Shown here: positions 1,117 through 8,105 of the stretch, in pieces
How the letters are laid out: every line of letters starts with the position of its first letter
Position numbering within the stretch: position 1 is the stretch's first letter
UHGV virus genome: UHGV-1637634
From: a virus
Direction: 5' to 3' (one strand)
DNA: 14,525 nt
Translations under genes and position numbers: made by a program
The notes under the pieces: model-generated
Database searches by the model: none
What the model was told of the DNA's origin: nothing
What the model saw: only the letters and a program-made list of their open reading frames with translations

Positions 1117-2211
1117 ATGAGCAGACCGGACTGGGGGGCGTTGCAGCAGGAGTATATTGCTGAATACACCCGCTCCGGTATATCTCCGGTGGCATGGTGT
1201 GAAGCAAGGGGACTGAATTACGCAACAGCCCGTCGTTACATCAAAAAAACTCCGAAAAATGCGCAGACAGAAATGCGCAAAACTGCGCAAAAAAGTGCGC
1301 AGAAAAAATCTGCGCAGACTGCACAAAAGCGGAACGAAAAATCTCAGGAAAAAAAGCCAGTATTCGATGCGGGCCTGAATGAGGGCGACGCGGAGGAATT
1401 TTCGTTCTGTCCCGATGAATTCGGCATTTCTGACCAGCAGGCTAAGTTTGCGATGCTTGTTGCTCAGGGTAAAAAGCCGACAGAGGCGTACCGACTAGCC
1501 GGTTATGAGGGGCAAGGTGCGACAGCTAACAGCAACGCCAGTCGTATGCTTAGAAATGCCAGGGTTTATCGTGCTATCAGCTACTTCCGCAATCAGTACC
1601 AGAAACGCTATACCGCAGACCTGGATTTACTGGTGAGCCAGTTGATGGCCATTGTCCAGGCCGACCCCAATCAGTTGGCACAATTTCGCCGTGTTAACTG
1701 CCGTTATTGCTGGGGCGAGAATCATCTCTACCAGTGGCGTGATATTGCAGAATTCGATAAGGCTGCGGCACAGGCCTCCAGAGATGGTAAACCCGAGCCG
1801 GAATATGGAGGCCTCGGCTTTGTTGATAACGCCATACCCAATCCGGATTGCCCGAAGTGCTGCGGTGAGGGAACGGGACAGCTTTATATGGCTGATACCA
1901 CACTGCTTGATGGGGATGCGCGGCAATTATATGCAGGGTCAAAGCTCGGAAAATACGGTGTTGAGATCCTGCTGGAGGATAAGGCTGCCGCCCGGCGTGA
2001 ATTGTTGCGTTTGTTTTCTGCTGGCGGGGCTTTATGTGCAGATAAGCGGCTACAGGAACTGGAAATTGAACGGCGCAGAATGGAAAACCAGAAGCTGCGC
2101 AAAGAGATCGAAACGGTGGAAGATAATGAACATCCCCAGCCTGTGGCGATCAATATTAATGTGGTTGATGCCAGAGTAAGGAGTGATGAAGATGATCTCT
2201 CCGACGCTTAA
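1117..2211 (+). CDS. terminase small subunit (unusually long, multi-domain)
   Basis: 364 aa, immediately upstream of and overlapping the terminase large subunit gene. Central segment ISDQQAKFAMLVAQGKKPTEAYRLAGYEG...ANSNASRMLRNARVYRAI matches the helix-turn-helix signature of phage small terminases of the SPP1 G1P type. Also has an N-terminal HTH-like segment, a K/Q/A-rich linker, a cysteine cluster (CRYC...CPKCC) and a C-terminal coiled coil with acidic tail. Confidence 0.7.
   Translation: MSRPDWGALQQEYIAEYTRSGISPVAWCEARGLNYATARRYIKKTPKNAQTEMRKTAQKSAQKKSAQTAQKRNEKSQEKKPVFDAGLNEGDAEEFSFCPDEFGISDQQAKFAMLVAQGKKPTEAYRLAGYEGQGATANSNASRMLRNARVYRAISYFRNQYQKRYTADLDLLVSQLMAIVQADPNQLAQFRRVNCRYCWGENHLYQWRDIAEFDKAAAQASRDGKPEPEYGGLGFVDNAIPNPDCPKCCGEGTGQLYMADTTLLDGDARQLYAGSKLGKYGVEILLEDKAAARRELLRLFSAGGALCADKRLQELEIERRRMENQKLRKEIETVEDNEHPQPVAININVVDARVRSDEDDLSDA
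1242..1356 (+). repeat. phased direct repeats inside the terminase small subunit gene: five TGCGCA cores alternating with A-tracts; candidate pac/terminase recognition region
   Basis: TGCGCA occurs at 1260, 1274, 1284, 1296 and 1311 (spacings 14, 10, 12, 15 bp), each followed by an A-rich run, with a TGCACA variant at 1319. Runs of four or more A recur at roughly one helical turn from about 1242 to 1356. The segment encodes the AQK/AQT-rich linker of the protein. Confidence 0.5.
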
Positions 2212-3493
2212 TGTGCCTCAGGCGCGATTTCTTTCAATGCCCCATAAATTTAAAGCCTATATTGCTGGTTTTGGCTCGGGCAAAACATGGGTTGGGTGTG
2301 GCGGCATATGCAAGGGGATTTGGGAGCATCCAGGTATAAATCAGGGATATTTTGCGCCAACGTATCCCCAAATTCGCGATATTTTTTACCCTACAGTGGA
2401 AGAAGTTGCTGCTGACTGGGGATTGAACGTAAAAATTAATGAGGGAAATAAAGAGGTTCACTTTTATTACGGACGCCAGTATCGGGGAACCACTATCTGC
2501 AGATCGATGGAGAAGCCACAAACGATCGTCGGTTTCAAAATTGGTAATGCGTTGGTGGATGAACTGGACATTTTGCCGAAGGAAAAAGCCAGAACGGCGT
2601 GGCGCAAGATAATTGCACGTATGCGTTATAAGATTGATGGACTTCGCAACGGTATTGACGTTACAACCACGCCGGAAGGATTCAAATTTGTCTACGAGCA
2701 GTTTGTTAAAGCCGTGCGTGAAAAAACAGAGCTGGCCTCACTGTATGGTCTGGTGCAGGCATCTACTTTCGATAATGAAAAGAACCTGCCAGCAGATTAC
2801 ATTCCTTCGCTTCTTGAATCATACCCTCCAGAGCTGATTAAAGCCTATCTTCGAGGACAGTTTACTAACCTGACAAGTGGTACTGTTTACCATCAGTTTG
2901 ACCGGAAACTGAATAATTGCGAAGAAGTGGAGCAGCCAGGGGAGCCGATTTATATTGGGATGGATTTTAACGTTGGAAAGATGGCGGGAATCGTCCATGT
3001 GCTGCGTTTGGGGCTTCCATGTGCGGTAACTGAAATCATCAATGCCTACGATACGCCGGATATGATCCGCATCATTAAAGAACGCTTCTGGCTGTATGAT
3101 GGGAATGATTACCGGAAAGTGAGGGAAATTTATATTTATCCAGATGCTTCCGGGGATTCCAGAAAATCAAGTAACGCAAGTACGACGGATATAGCCCAGC
3201 TTAAGCAGGCTGGTTTTAACGTTGTGGTGAACAGCTCGAACCCGCCAGTAAAAGATCGCGTTAACTCAATGAATGCAATGTTCTGCAATGCCAATGGTGA
3301 GCGTCGCTATAAAGTTAATGTGAAGCGTTGCCCGTTATATGCCGAATCTCTGGAGCAACAGGTCTGGGATGAGAAGGGGGAGCCTGATAAAAAATCTGGC
3401 AATGATCACCCGAATGATGCCGGAGGTTATTTCATCGTTAAGCAATTCCCTATTGTCAAACCGACCGGAAGAGTCACATCACTTCGGATTTAA
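2192..3493 (+). CDS. terminase large subunit
   Basis: Walker A-like motif GFGSGKT near the N-terminus; about 433 aa; follows the small subunit gene with overlap. AAGGAG at 2178-2183 is 8 nt upstream of ATG 2192; alternative in-frame starts are GTG 2183 and ATG 2186. Stop TAA at 3491-3493. Confidence 0.85.
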   Translation: MISPTLNVPQARFLSMPHKFKAYIAGFGSGKTWVGCGGICKGIWEHPGINQGYFAPTYPQIRDIFYPTVEEVAADWGLNVKINEGNKEVHFYYGRQYRGTTICRSMEKPQTIVGFKIGNALVDELDILPKEKARTAWRKIIARMRYKIDGLRNGIDVTTTPEGFKFVYEQFVKAVREKTELASLYGLVQASTFDNEKNLPADYIPSLLESYPPELIKAYLRGQFTNLTSGTVYHQFDRKLNNCEEVEQPGEPIYIGMDFNVGKMAGIVHVLRLGLPCAVTEIINAYDTPDMIRIIKERFWLYDGNDYRKVREIYIYPDASGDSRKSSNASTTDIAQLKQAGFNVVVNSSNPPVKDRVNSMNAMFCNANGERRYKVNVKRCPLYAESLEQQVWDEKGEPDKKSGNDHPNDAGGYFIVKQFPIVKPTGRVTSLRI

Positions 3494-3495
3494 TT

Positions 3496-4902
3496 ATGGC
3501 TGATATATCAACACCCAACCTCGACTATAACGATATGCTGGAGGCGTGGGATATTAACGACGCACTGATGGGCGGTACGCTTGAAATGCGCAGGCAGGGG
3601 GAAAATTATCTCCCAAAATGGCCTAACGAAGATGAAGACGCTTATAAAAAACGCCTGTCTGTGGCTACGCTACTTCCTGTGTATGAAGAAAGCATCAAGC
3701 AAAATATTGGGCGCATATTTGCAGAGCCGACAGTATTGAGTGAGGAAACGCCGGCAAAAATCAGGGAATATGCAGAAAATATCGACATGGAGGGGAGCCG
3801 ACTGGATGTGTGGGCGCAGCAATTTTTCAGCCTCGCATTTCAGTATGGTGTGGCACATGCGCTGGTGGACTATCCACGAACGGATATGAAAGAGATTCGG
3901 ACAAAAGCCGATGAAAACGCGACCGGTGGTCGTCCGTACGTTACGATGCTGAATCCACGCCAGGTTATTGGATGGAAATCGAAAGTTGAAAAAGGGAAAG
4001 TTGTTCTCACTGATTTGCGTATAAAAGAGGTCATCATTATTGATGGTGATGATTTCGGGCAGAAGAAGGTGGAGCAGATCCGCCATATTATGCCCCGTCG
4101 AGTTGAAATTTATCGACGTAGCGAAGGCACTAATGGCGAATCTGTCTGGACGCTTCATGAGTCATGGAATACCAGCCGTGATGATATTCCTCTGGTAACA
4201 CTGTACACGAAGAAAACAGGATTTATGCGTGGTACACCGCCATTGCTTAATCTTGGCTTGCTGAATATCAAGCACTGGCAAAGCCAGAGCGAGCAGGACA
4301 ATATTCTTCATGTTGCCCGCGTTCCATTGCTGGTGGCCTACGGGCTGGACAGGAATGAAGAACTGACGGTTGGTGCATCCACCGCTACGATTTTTGAGGA
4401 CAGAACAAAAAATGGCCTCGAATATGTTGAACATAGTGGCGCAGCGATAGAATCTGGCGAAACATCACTTGAGAAGCTGGAAAATCAGATGCGTCATGCC
4501 GGCGCTAAACTTCTGCGTGCTGAAAATACATCCACCAAATCTGTTGATCAGACTAATGAAGAGCGAATGCAGGAAAACTCGCCGCTTTATACAATGGCGA
4601 ACTCCCTCGAAGATGCCCTCGATAATATTCTCCAGATAATGGCGGAATGGATCGGAGAGAGTTGCGGTGGCAATGTGGATGTGCGCACTGAACTGGATGT
4701 ATCTGCCCAGGTGTTTGACTCATCCTCCGCGCTGGCTGTTCAGTCATTGCGTCAGGGCGGTGATATACGTCAGATTGATGCGGTTCGGGTGTTGCAGGCG
4801 TTGAAATTTATCGATCAGGATTCCCGTCCAGAGGAAGTGATCGATGAATTAAAAAATCAGAGTGTAATGCTGATGGAAATCAATGATGCAAACCGTGAAT
4901 GA
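3496..4902 (+). CDS. portal protein
   Basis: 468 aa ORF starting 2 nt after the terminase large subunit stop (translational coupling) and followed by a Mu F-like gene. Size and position are those of a portal gene. Assigned mainly by synteny. Confidence 0.7.
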   Translation: MADISTPNLDYNDMLEAWDINDALMGGTLEMRRQGENYLPKWPNEDEDAYKKRLSVATLLPVYEESIKQNIGRIFAEPTVLSEETPAKIREYAENIDMEGSRLDVWAQQFFSLAFQYGVAHALVDYPRTDMKEIRTKADENATGGRPYVTMLNPRQVIGWKSKVEKGKVVLTDLRIKEVIIIDGDDFGQKKVEQIRHIMPRRVEIYRRSEGTNGESVWTLHESWNTSRDDIPLVTLYTKKTGFMRGTPPLLNLGLLNIKHWQSQSEQDNILHVARVPLLVAYGLDRNEELTVGASTATIFEDRTKNGLEYVEHSGAAIESGETSLEKLENQMRHAGAKLLRAENTSTKSVDQTNEERMQENSPLYTMANSLEDALDNILQIMAEWIGESCGGNVDVRTELDVSAQVFDSSSALAVQSLRQGGDIRQIDAVRVLQALKFIDQDSRPEEVIDELKNQSVMLMEINDANRE

Positions 4903-5998
4903 ACGGCTGCGTGATGAATCAATTGCTCATGCAGTCTGGATATCCCGCTATAGCACTGGCGTGGCTGCCAGAATGGTGAAAATACTGAATGACAGCGATG
5001 CGGAACTTACTGCTCGCCTGCTGATAGCACTGGACAGCCTCGATCCAGGTAGTTTTACCGTTAAGCGCCTGGAGTCACTTCTGGCGAGCGTCAGAGAGGT
5101 TAACCGCACTGCTATTAACAGCATGTTTACCAGTCTCTCCGGAGAGCTGAACGAGCTGGCAATTTATGAGGCTGGTTATCAGTTAAGTCTGTTTGATTCT
5201 ATGCTACCTGATTTTGTTGCTGATGTTCACCCTCTGGTTGGTATCTCTCCTGATGCACTTTATGCCGCTGCAATGGCGCGACCATTCCAGGGACGACTGC
5301 TCAGTGAGTGGGCCTCAGATCTTGAGGCGGATCGGCTCAGACGCATAACAAATACAGTGCGTCAGGGTTTTTTGCTGGGGGATACCAATGAGCAGATCGC
5401 AAGAAAAATTCGGGGACATGTCAGTAAGGGATTTCAGGATGGTGCATTGCAGATGAGCCGGGCTAATGCGGCCAGCATTGCAAAAACAGCGGTTGGACAT
5501 CTTGCTGCTACTGCCCGTGAGAGTTTTGCCAGCGCGAATAATGATTTGATTAAGGGTAAGCAATGGTTATCAACGCTTGATAATCGTACTACGCCACAAT
5601 GTCGAATCAGGGATCGCCTCAAATATACGCTGAATAATAAACCTGTAGGTCACAGCGTGCCTTATTTGCAGGGGCCGGGAAAAATTCATTTCTGCTGCCG
5701 CTCAACGGAAACGTTCATTCTGAAATCAGCGAAGGAACTGGGTATTGATGTTCGCGATATTTCCCCGGCTGAGCGGGCCAGCATGGATGGCGTGGTGGCC
5801 GGAGATACAACCTACAGGGAATGGTTTTTGCGTCAGCCTTACACCAGACAAAAACAGATTGTGGGGGAAACCCGAGCAAAGCTGATTCGGGATGGTGGTA
5901 TGTCGCCAGATGAATTTTACACCGATAAAGGCGAATGGCTGACGCTGAAGCAGCTCCGTGAGCGTGATGCACAGGTATTCAGAAAAGCAGGGATTTAA
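4883..5998 (+). CDS. head morphogenesis / minor head protein (phage Mu F-like, SPP1 gp7-like)
   Basis: 371 aa; overlaps the portal gene 3' end by 20 nt. C-terminal region contains WLSTLDNRTTPQCRIRDRLKY...KPVGHSVPYLQGPGKIHFCCRST, matching the conserved Mu F-family core (W..DsRtRp.H...G ... CRC-like motif). Confidence 0.75.
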   Translation: MMQTVNERLRDESIAHAVWISRYSTGVAARMVKILNDSDAELTARLLIALDSLDPGSFTVKRLESLLASVREVNRTAINSMFTSLSGELNELAIYEAGYQLSLFDSMLPDFVADVHPLVGISPDALYAAAMARPFQGRLLSEWASDLEADRLRRITNTVRQGFLLGDTNEQIARKIRGHVSKGFQDGALQMSRANAASIAKTAVGHLAATARESFASANNDLIKGKQWLSTLDNRTTPQCRIRDRLKYTLNNKPVGHSVPYLQGPGKIHFCCRSTETFILKSAKELGIDVRDISPAERASMDGVVAGDTTYREWFLRQPYTRQKQIVGETRAKLIRDGGMSPDEFYTDKGEWLTLKQLRERDAQVFRKAGI

Positions 5999-6017: not shown

Positions 6018-6045
6018 AGGCTACCTTCGGGTGGCCTTTTTTATT
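6018..6045 (+). terminator. putative intrinsic terminator
   Basis: AGGCUACC-UUCG-GGUGGCCU hairpin (8-bp stem with one G-U pair, UUCG tetraloop) at 6018-6037, followed by UUUUUUAUU. Lies 20 nt after the Mu F-like gene stop. Confidence 0.5.
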
Positions 6046-6102
6046 GCTGCGATCCGGATGGTGAGCAGCGTAACTGTCGGAAGACTTAAACCAGGTACTA
6101 AT

Positions 6103-6867
6103 ATGAAACTGAAAACGGTCGAGATTAACGGAAAACAATACGCAGAAATTGATACTGCTGGCCTGCCAGTTTATGTGCACGACGATGGTAAAGAAATTGG
6201 CTTCGATGCACCGCTGGCGACAAAAAAAATTACAGAGCTTAATGGCGAGGCAAAAAATCATCGCCTGGCTAAAGAAGCTGCAGAGGAAAAACTGGCTAAG
6301 TTTGCCGCTATCGAAGACCCGAAGAAGGCGATCGAGGCACTGGAAATGCTGTCAAAAATCGACCAGAAAAAGCTGCTCGATGCGGGACAGGTTGACCAGG
6401 TTAAGGCAGAAATTACGAAAAATTTTCAGCAGCAATTAGATGAAGAAAAGCAACGCTCTCAGATGCTGGAGAAGCAGCTTTACGATTCTATGATTGGCGG
6501 TAGTTTTGCGGGTTCAAAATATATTGCCGATAAAATTGCGATCCCGGCAGATTTATTACAAGCCCGCTTCGGGCAGGCATTCAAAGTGGAAGAAGGGAGG
6601 ATCGTTGCTTATGACGCTTCCGGCAACAAAATTTATTCCCGCGCGAAGCCTGGCGAACTGGCGCAGTTTGATGAGGCGCTGGAGTTCCTTGTCGAAAATT
6701 ACCCTCAGAAAGACTACATCCTGAAAGCCAGTGGCAACAATGGCGGCGGCTCCCGTCCGACACAGCATGATATTGGTCAGAAAACGATGAAACGCTCTGC
6801 TTTTGATGCACTGGATGTTGCAGGTAAGCAAAACGCATTGAAAGACGGTATCACAATCGTTGATTAA
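6103..6867 (+). CDS. putative capsid scaffolding protein
   Basis: ATG at 6103 (MKLKTVEINGKQ...) is preferred over the track's GTG at 6031, which lies inside the terminator hairpin. 254 aa with a charged, helical, coiled-coil-like middle region. Sits between the Mu F-like gene and the capsid gene. Assigned by position and composition. Confidence 0.55.
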   Translation: MKLKTVEINGKQYAEIDTAGLPVYVHDDGKEIGFDAPLATKKITELNGEAKNHRLAKEAAEEKLAKFAAIEDPKKAIEALEMLSKIDQKKLLDAGQVDQVKAEITKNFQQQLDEEKQRSQMLEKQLYDSMIGGSFAGSKYIADKIAIPADLLQARFGQAFKVEEGRIVAYDASGNKIYSRAKPGELAQFDEALEFLVENYPQKDYILKASGNNGGGSRPTQHDIGQKTMKRSAFDALDVAGKQNALKDGITIVD

Positions 6868-6965
6868 CACATTTGTCAGCTTCCGGATGGGAGCTGGTGT
6901 CAGGGCTGGATAGCTCATTACTCCATCTATTCACAATTACGCAAATTTTTAAGGAATATTTAATT

Positions 6966-8105
6966 ATGGCTGGAAATACCCTGACCGGGTTGATCCCGAC
7001 TATTTATACCGCCCTGGATGTTGTATCCCGTGAGCAGGTAGGTTTTATCCCTGCGGTAGCAAAAAACGCAAAAGCTGACGCCGCAGCAAAAGATCAGACG
7101 GTAACCGCGCCAGTTGCGCCTGAGGCGAAAACCGAAGATATCGTACCGGGGCCGTCAGCTCCGAATACCGGTGATCAAAATATTGGCACTGTTGATGTAA
7201 AAATTACTAAATCCAAAATGGCACCGGTTAAATGGAATGGTGAAGAACAACTGGCTCTTGGCCCTTCAGGGACTTACAACACCATTCTGGCTGATCAGTT
7301 CAAGCAGGCTTTTCGCGCCCTTGCAAACGAGGTTGAGGCTGATCTTGGTGCGTTGTATTTCGGTGCTTCCCGCGCCGTGGGAACCGCAGGGACAACGCCG
7401 TTTGGTGTTAAAGATGATCTTTCTGATGCTGCTCTGGCTCGTCAGGTTCTGGAGGATAACGGCGCACCGACAACCGATCTGCAGATGGTGCTTGGCTCCA
7501 CTGCCATTGCTAATTTGCGCGGAAAACAGTCTGTATTGTTTAAAGTGAATGAATCCGGCACTGAACAGCTACTGCGTGAGGGCGTGTTGGGGCGTCTGGA
7601 GGGATTCAATATTCACAGTTCGGCAGGTGTGAAACGAGCGCCAAAGGTTGCTGCAACTGGTTATCTCGTGAATGGAGAGAAAAAAGAAGGCGATGTTCTT
7701 ATTTCCATTGATACTGGTTCGGGGAGTATTTCTGCAGGTCAGATTGTTACGTTCGCTGGTGATCCGAATCAGTATGTTGTGGCAGCAGCGACCAGCAATC
7801 TGATTACTCTTGCAGCGCCCGGACTGCGTCAGGATCTGGCCGATGATACTGCCATCACAGTTGTTGGGGCCTTTACTGCAAATATGGCGTTTGATCGCAA
7901 CGCGTTTCTGCTGGCATCCCGTACTCCGGCAATGCCGGAAGGCGGCGATAATGCTGATGATGTAATGAATGTTACGGACCCGATTTCAGGGATTACGTTC
8001 CAGATTGCACTGTATCGTCAGTATCGCCAGGTGCGCTATGAAGTTGGACTGGCATGGGGTGTTTCATCAGTGAAGCCGGCACATGGTTGTCTGATTCTTG
8101 GTTAA
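6966..8105 (+). CDS. major capsid protein
   Basis: ATG 6966 is preceded by AAGGAA at 6951-6956; the track's upstream extension to 6873 has no RBS. 379 aa, located after the scaffold gene and followed by a strong terminator, as expected for a highly expressed coat gene. Assigned by synteny. Confidence 0.65.
   Translation: MAGNTLTGLIPTIYTALDVVSREQVGFIPAVAKNAKADAAAKDQTVTAPVAPEAKTEDIVPGPSAPNTGDQNIGTVDVKITKSKMAPVKWNGEEQLALGPSGTYNTILADQFKQAFRALANEVEADLGALYFGASRAVGTAGTTPFGVKDDLSDAALARQVLEDNGAPTTDLQMVLGSTAIANLRGKQSVLFKVNESGTEQLLREGVLGRLEGFNIHSSAGVKRAPKVAATGYLVNGEKKEGDVLISIDTGSGSISAGQIVTFAGDPNQYVVAAATSNLITLAAPGLRQDLADDTAITVVGAFTANMAFDRNAFLLASRTPAMPEGGDNADDVMNVTDPISGITFQIALYRQYRQVRYEVGLAWGVSSVKPAHGCLILG

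Follow-up and report, generated by a model that had tools for sequence, protein, structure and literature searches.

The small terminase gene and its modular product

In the virus genome UHGV-1637634, a stretch of 14,525 nucleotides (nt) referred to here as the window, we analyzed the gene for the terminase small subunit (TerS), terS, and the DNA repeats inside it. The open reading frame (ORF) spans 1117-2211 on the + strand and encodes 364 amino acids (aa), with an ATG at 1117, AGGA ahead of the start codon, and a stop codon at 2209-2211. Its product was matched by the Pfam family Terminase_2 (PF03592; 35.3 bits against a gathering cutoff of 26.1, E = 2e-8), by phrog_51, "terminase small subunit," which covers it at full length (E = 7e-76), and a profile of its family matched the SF6 G1P structure. 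Directly downstream and in the same orientation lie the gene for the large subunit (TerL), terL (2192-3493, +; Terminase_6N, E = 4e-33; Terminase_6C, E = 3e-10; also annotated so in the related phage vB_EcoS-666R9, ON470614), and the portal gene (3496-4902, +; DUF4055, phrog_145). The ATG of terL at 2192, which is the start used in the related-phage annotation, gives a 20-nt overlap with the 3' end of terS.

The gene was found in 896 of 5,426 complete Escherichia coli genomes, where it is annotated as terminase small subunit, and 10 sequenced phages had a 99% DNA match, 9 of them induced E. coli phages (vB_EcoS-…R…) and 1 the Salmonella phage SPF_0923. A single 90%-identity cluster of the product holds 1,423 member sequences, the same ORF of 363-365 aa recurs across thousands of independent assemblies, and homologs occur in many genera. 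Because of the 896 genomes, the induced phages, and the 1,423-member cluster, the ORF is real and intact and not an artifact of assembly. It is a common, correctly annotated small terminase of a Rac/lambdoid-type E. coli prophage, and its protein is an undescribed variant that joins a G1P-type small terminase, a 4-cysteine (Cys4) insert, a cassette of N-terminal head plus DNA hexamers, and a TerL-matched tail. The original prediction, made from the letters and ORF translations, had called the protein oversized. Although few small terminases reach this length, it is usual within the Cys4 TerS family, in which homologs have a short form of 240-270 aa and a long form of 318-365 aa, so that the term is relative, because the architecture is standard in a very large, routinely annotated, and biochemically uncharacterized family.

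An AlphaFold2 monomer model built on an 88-sequence alignment (mean predicted local distance difference test score, pLDDT, 82) comprised a confident 3-helix bundle at residues 6-43, a low-confidence stretch at 46-100, and a body at 100-300 mostly above 90. The core of this body is of the SF6/SPP1 G1P type. It includes a G1P-type (Terminase_2) helix-turn-helix (HTH) DNA-binding domain (aa 105-160; 1429-1596, +), a long helix corresponding to the first oligomerization helix of G1P (aa 148-183; 1558-1665, +; AlphaFold2 helix 148-181, G1P alignment to residue 103), and, past the Cys4 insert, a G1P-like strand and helix (aa 277-305; 1945-2031, +; aligned to SF6 G1P 117-153), where AlphaFold2 has one strand at 272-278, another at 281-286, and a helix that starts at 289. 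The family profile aligned with the SF6 G1P structure 3zqp at E = 2e-21 (2.2e-21) in 2 pieces, G1P residues 18-103 (HTH and first long helix) and 117-153 (strand and helix), and between them about 95 profile positions of the Cys4 TerS family stand where G1P has 14 residues. The Terminase_2 match is likewise stretched, with 200 TerS residues over 110 profile positions. As in the Terminase_2 family, the HTH precedes the oligomerization helix; however, the oligomerization domain is interrupted, and not compact and continuous with the C-terminal strand and helix as it is in that family.

The interruption holds the rubredoxin- or zinc-ribbon-like Cys4 insert (about aa 184-276; 1666-1944, +), with the pattern C195-R-Y-C198-W-G ... 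G231-G ... P-D-C245-P-K-C248-C-G-E-G. A CxxC...CxxCC cluster had been predicted at 1699-1863, and the codon positions agree (C195, 1699-1701; C198, 1708-1710; C245, 1849-1851; C248, 1858-1860; C249, 1861-1863); 4 of the 5 cysteines are conserved, and the third adjacent one drops out. C195, C198, C245, and C248 were invariant in 9 phage TerS and in 88 homologs (mostly 25-45% identical to the query), whereas C249 varies, leaving CxxC...CPxC as the conserved motif. Its usual form is CR[YH]C[WYH]G…H.YQW…(about 45 aa)…PNP.CP.C.GEG, and CxxC…CxxC was present in 109 of 123 cluster representatives of at least 220 aa from a 50%-identity library. The whole Cys4 TerS family comprises 1,771 clusters at 50% identity (E <= 1e-3), and no counterpart of the insert was found among solved structures. 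The knuckles CxxCxG and CPxCxG resemble those of rubredoxin and zinc ribbons, and from the sequence pattern the insert most likely holds a structural zinc ion.

Known systems close to this core include annotated but uncharacterized short-form TerS, those of F116, Bcep22, BcepC6B, BcepIL02, PEp14, and Acinetobacter 4316, which share the G1P-type HTH, the Cys4 insert, and an invariant CR[YH]C…CPxC but have only 237-271 aa, no head, no hexamer array in the gene, and other C-terminal tails. SF6 and SPP1 G1P (PDB 3zqp, 3zqq, 2cmp, and 4zc3) differ further, with no accessory N-terminal HTH, 14 residues in place of the roughly 95-residue Cys4 module, and neither the long C-terminal helix nor the TerL-type-specific tail. 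In a 2022 TerS review, the herpesvirus proteins pUL28 and pUL56 are the only small-terminase-type proteins described with zinc fingers (PMC9611059). We detected no relation of sequence or fold between these much larger, all-helical proteins and the window's TerS, and the likeness is one of analogy alone.

Beyond the core, AlphaFold2 predicts a long helix at aa 289-335 (1981-2121, +; pLDDT 54-84) and a disordered acidic tail at aa 336-364 (2122-2208, +; …PVAININVVDARVRSDEDDLSDA). Both had been anticipated, the helix as a coiled coil, which it possibly is. Covariation with TerL marks the tail as a candidate TerL-binding module. Its last 30 or so residues (…PVAININVVDARV…D..SDA) are common to Klebsiella/Enterobacter-type homologs, and because in these the TerL is 76-89% identical to the window's, against an identity of no more than about 40% for the TerS core, the comparison indicates that terS has recombined at a point upstream of the part that codes for the tail. 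Of 32 loci with the tail motif ININV[VA]DAR, 31 have a TerL at least 75% identical to the window's. In contrast, the loci with the closest TerS cores (55-61%) have other tails and a TerL less than 40% identical, and 3 further tail types are each paired with their own TerL group, even across different cores. Binding of TerL by the C-terminus is established for P22 gp3 and other TerS, and by analogy the pairing of tail and TerL fits such a role.

An N-terminal head and the hexamer array behind it

The first 45 residues form an added N-terminal HTH (1117-1251, +) of the kind found in the TerS of Shiga toxin (Stx) phages and, with weaker support, in P1 PacA, identified by AlphaFold2 (helices 6-20, 24-30, and 35-38; pLDDT about 87-94) and by hhalign. 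Its recognition helix is T37-A-R39-R-Y-I-K43. Against the N-terminus of the VT2-Sakai TerS, the head aligned with a probability of 98.9% and E = 4e-17; against that of P1 PacA, residues 6-45 aligned over 40 columns with a probability of 85.9% and E = 5e-6, and pairwise BLAST gave E = 0.026. Homology to PacA over the full length was rejected, the alignment being confined to the first 40 or so residues. HTH-like segments had been placed at about 1-45 and 105-160 from the letters alone, and both are now borne out by the model and by homology to Stx-phage TerS, and more weakly to PacA, on the one hand and G1P on the other. No Pfam or NCBIfam family matched the head above threshold, and weak, sub-threshold matches to transposase-type HTH were all that appeared.

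The head is not a general property of the family. The TerS of F116, Bcep22, BcepC6B, PEp14, and Acinetobacter 4316 align with residues 100-300 or so alone and have no equivalent of the first 100 residues, which are present in homologs from Yersinia, Klebsiella, and E. coli PHB10 phages and in about 50 enterobacterial prophage homologs (318-365 aa). Because short forms exist without this part and long forms with it, the sequence comparison indicates that it was added to a Cys4 TerS that already existed. The suggestion that a DNA-recognition module had been fused to a TerS core is thereby supported, as it is by the occurrence of the head on 3 PHROG TerS families. Among the homologs examined, we found no clean split into 2 genes; the small genes upstream of the short-form TerS in Acinetobacter 4316 and BcepC6B were considered as a split-gene origin and rejected, as they are not homologous to the head.

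Immediately 3' of the head-coding part, the palindrome TGCGCA occurs in 5 exact copies (1260, 1274, 1284, 1296, and 1311), which form an array with a degenerate TGCACA (1320), separated by A-rich spacers (1260-1325, no strand assigned; repeat scan and resampling), which we propose as a candidate pac recognition site. The 5 exact copies fall within 57 base pairs (bp) (1260-1316, +143 to +199 of the ORF) and make up half of the 10 TGCGCA copies in the window. They are translated as part of a low-complexity K/Q/A linker (aa 46-100; 1252-1416, +; pLDDT 43-73), a feature that had been recognized earlier and that proves to be, for the most part, the translation of the array. In the window, with 1 mismatch allowed, no second hexamer cluster was found, and 780 bp separate the array from the next TGCGCA. 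A partial E. coli match ending at nt 145, tried as a recombination junction at the array, turned out to be an IS1 truncation.

We surveyed 80 loci from different species, each encoding the head, in an unbiased scan for the densest 6-mer cluster anywhere in the 6-kb locus. In about 60 of them this 6-mer was TGCGCA, or CTGCGC in a shifted register, and its cluster lay at about +137 of the ORF. Over 72 loci, 313 hexamers were counted at +100 to +199 and 77 at +300 to +399, where other stretches have about 2-3 per 100 bp. They are spaced irregularly (7-16 bp) and translated in all 3 frames (264, 79, and 23), as "AQ" in one and "(L/V/M)R(T/K/N)" in another. When the peptides were held fixed and the codons redrawn synonymously, 376 hexamers stood against 37.0 expected over the loci, a roughly 10-fold excess, and for the window's own array 5 stood against 0.58, with none of 500 resamples reaching 5. 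Because of this excess and the use of all 3 frames, selection on the hexamers acts at the DNA level, and the K/Q/A peptide is therefore largely a by-product of encoding the DNA site. As a positive control, the same scan recovered the P1 TGATCA hexamers in pacA. It also recovered the Stx-phage arrays, and in 5 short-form TerS genes without the head it found nothing above background.

In about 35 Klebsiella/Enterobacter loci of a sister clade, TGCGCA clusters again, with 2-3 copies in the region of about +347 to +397 (for example, locus L003, 2860-2905), some 170 bp past the first cluster and inside the region coding for the G1P-type HTH ("VAQAIAQ…VRT"), giving a bipartite, P1-like arrangement. 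Elsewhere in the gene, toward its 3' end, the window's terS has a repeat, GCGCAG…TGCGCAAA (2073-2103, hexamer at 2096), that resembles the linker repeats, and TGCGCA is slightly enriched at +800 to +899 across loci (16, background about 2-3).

The head and the hexamers vary together. The recognition helix reads T-A-R39-R-Y-I-K in the majority of loci and T/S-A-K39-R-Y-I-K in a minority, and residue 39 covaries with hexamer position 5: Arg39 was paired with TGCGCA in 64 of 65 loci and Lys39 with TGCGAA/TTCGCA in all 12. The Lys39 loci include Yersinia phage vB_YenM_29.18, and their TGCGAA/TTCGCA arrays often read TGCGAATTCGCA. Across the 80 species the head is followed by an array of this kind directly 3' in its own gene, and the cassette of head and adjacent repeats was identified on 3 PHROG TerS families, the window's phrog_51 as well as phrog_32222 and phrog_370, and Lys39 cassettes occur on 3 different cores.

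Comparable arrangements were identified in 2 known systems. P1 PacA, a TerS-type subunit of 397 aa, is likewise oversized and can be aligned with the head through its N-terminal HTH, "…LNPNTARRYLR," and its gene likewise contains palindromic hexamers (TGATCA) shortly 3' of the HTH, translated in several frames and surrounding the annotated pac cleavage and IHF sites. The P1 pac site has been described as containing 7 hexanucleotide repeats (PMC11260489). Beyond the head, PacA has no similarity to the window's TerS, and its core is unlike the window's G1P-type core with a Cys4 insert. Further, the P1 hexamers carry GATC and so come under Dam control, whereas TGCGCA has no GATC, and P1 pac is bipartite (4 + 3 hexamers), an IHF site lying between its halves, in contrast to the window's one cluster of 5. 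The TerS of Stx phages of the 933W/VT2-Sakai type has a clearly homologous head and a repeat array at the same position, but with the recognition helix NTARTRIK, another hexamer, and another core (268 aa, no Cys4 motif seen). In VT2-Sakai the array consists of 4 GATCAT at 12-bp spacing, read as IDHEIDHKTDHEIDH (locus L092, 1636-1690), and contains a Dam site. The Stx-type head was present in about 230-250 phage records, and by analogy the GATCAT array is a candidate pac element of Stx-converting phages, a medically important group. In the searchable literature, outside which most subscription journals lie, we found nothing relevant linking TGCGCA to terminase, no description of an Stx-phage pac site, and no mention of zinc or CxxC in phage TerS.

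A candidate packaging cassette and its rivals

The best reading of the locus, and in our judgment a moderately probable one, is that a portable, P1-like pac-recognition cassette has been fused to a zinc-bearing G1P-type TerS. The gene would then be assembled from 4 independently recombining modules. The head (residues 1-45) would read the TGCGCA array just 3' of it in its own gene, and the array (1260-1316), as a pac recognition site or part of one, would be the place on the concatemeric DNA at which TerS assembles and has TerL make the first cut, starting headful packaging. The core (residues 105-183 and 277-305), with its G1P-type HTH and oligomerization domain, would form the presumed TerS ring; the Cys4 insert (about 184-276) within that domain would bring its 2 CxxC knuckles around what is most likely a structural zinc; and the C-terminal helix and acidic tail would dock the cognate TerL. 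Analogy with P1 and the covariation at residue 39 lead us to infer both binding of the hexamers by the head and a role of the array as a pac site or part of one.

Several points weigh against this reading. The number of independent evolutionary events behind the Arg/Lys covariation may be very small, the Lys class being perhaps a single cassette lineage. The homology to PacA is limited to about 40 residues and has moderate support (probability 86%, BLAST E = 0.026). The same protein has a second HTH, of G1P type, which in SF6 and SPP1 is the pac-binding element. Because the window's clade has 1 cluster, whereas P1 and the Klebsiella/Enterobacter sister clade have 2, cleavage may follow a different geometry here, or the site may include a part that has gone unrecognized. 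The metal of the Cys4 insert could also be iron instead of zinc.

The covariation and the DNA-level selection show only that head and repeats belong together, and the pair could also serve as an autoregulatory operator, at which TerS would bind its own coding region and throttle transcription or translation of terS-terL, with no part in packaging. The array does lie early in the gene, within its first 200 nt, and follows a DNA-binding domain such as transposases and regulators have. We nevertheless consider an operator unlikely: the cassette was confined to the N-termini of small terminases, with 3 unrelated cores, the probably homologous P1 arrangement flanks annotated pac cleavage sites, and P22, Sf6, SPP1, and P1 regularly have their pac site within terS. 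Position and pairing count as well against an ordinary TerS with a meaningless linker, in which slippage would have generated the repeats and the N-terminal HTH would bind DNA generically. Such an account is in keeping with an extremely common gene routinely annotated as terminase small subunit, with a linker predicted to be disordered, and with the irregular hexamer spacing. It is very improbable in view of the 10-fold excess over the synonymous expectation with all 3 frames used, the array position fixed in about 60 of 80 species, the covariation of residue 39 with the hexamer, and the distinct hexamers that go with the head in Stx phages and in P1.

A separate question is whether the Cys4 site holds structural zinc at all, or instead iron (rubredoxin-like or Fe-S) or disulfides that would make it a redox-sensitive packaging switch. 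Where cytoplasmic proteins that bind nucleic acids have Cys4 sites spaced in this way, the sites overwhelmingly hold structural zinc, the insert has no third CxxC and no Fe-S-type CxxCxxC pattern, and disulfides are unlikely in the cytoplasm; a switch of this kind is in our view quite unlikely, even though the knuckles CxxCxG...CPxCxG match rubredoxin as well as zinc ribbons and His203, which is nearly invariant, is a neighbor of the first knuckle. The last alternative, raised with the original prediction as what would overturn it, is that the long ORF is an artifactual fusion of 2 genes through a sequencing or assembly error. A few homologous loci do have short N-terminal ORFs, but these are frameshifted or insertion-sequence-disrupted copies with the remainder in another frame. 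Together with the 1,423-member cluster, the 896 complete genomes, the full-length ORF in thousands of independent assemblies and many genera, and the small upstream genes not homologous to the head, this refutes an artifactual fusion.

Under the cassette reading, a bolder generalization has, we think, about an even chance of holding. The first 100 or so codons would be a self-contained, horizontally mobile "packaging address label" that can be grafted onto unrelated cores, with a code at residue 39 (Arg for TGCGCA, Lys for TGCGAA) and other helices for GATCAT and TGATCA, and the Cys4 insert would define the first zinc-containing phage small terminases. Packaging signals are known for only a minority of pac-type phages, and here the array is a candidate site that can be read from sequence, at 1260-1325, with the head and array offering, on the question of TerS specificity, a covariation of 1 residue with 1 base. 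The terS family occurs in about one-sixth of complete E. coli genomes, and related forms occur in prophages of Klebsiella, Enterobacter, Yersinia, Proteus, and Providencia and in Stx phages. Knowledge of pac sites would help to predict which prophages mobilize host or plasmid DNA by transduction and to design packageable vectors. The Cys4 insert, in turn, marks a large TerS subfamily of more than 1,000 clusters at 50% identity, the TerS of F116 and Bcep22 included, across which it is nearly invariant and for which there is no solved structure.

Neighboring genes

Upstream of the terminase genes, a gene cut by the window start (1-926, +; ORF 63-926) encodes a homolog of TET-associated glycosyltransferases (Pfam TAGT, PF20691, E = 4e-27; phrog_842, "beta-glucosyl-HMC-alpha-glucosyltransferase," E = 2e-90). 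In ON470614, the glycosyltransferase gene comes after a ParB-like gene and trkG, with no TET/JBP gene annotated nearby, and according to that annotation the DNA-sugar-modification enzyme stands here without its usual partner. Directly upstream of terS is a small HTH-like ORF (862-1113, +, or 904-1113 as annotated in relatives; 83 or 69 aa), which has no Pfam match and matches phrog_309, "terminase small subunit," internally (145-218 of 319, E = 8e-23). No more than 5-6 of the fetched loci have it together with the glycosyltransferase, and it could be a further DNA-binding accessory of the packaging or modification module.

Downstream of the portal gene, the ORF at 4883-5998 (+) is annotated in related phages as "NAD+--asparagine ADP-ribosyltransferase," and its position suggests a head-morphogenesis protein. 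The consecutive ORFs at 6031-6867 and 6873-8105 (+) are both annotated in these phages as "P22 coat protein," and the former is more likely a scaffold or decoration gene.

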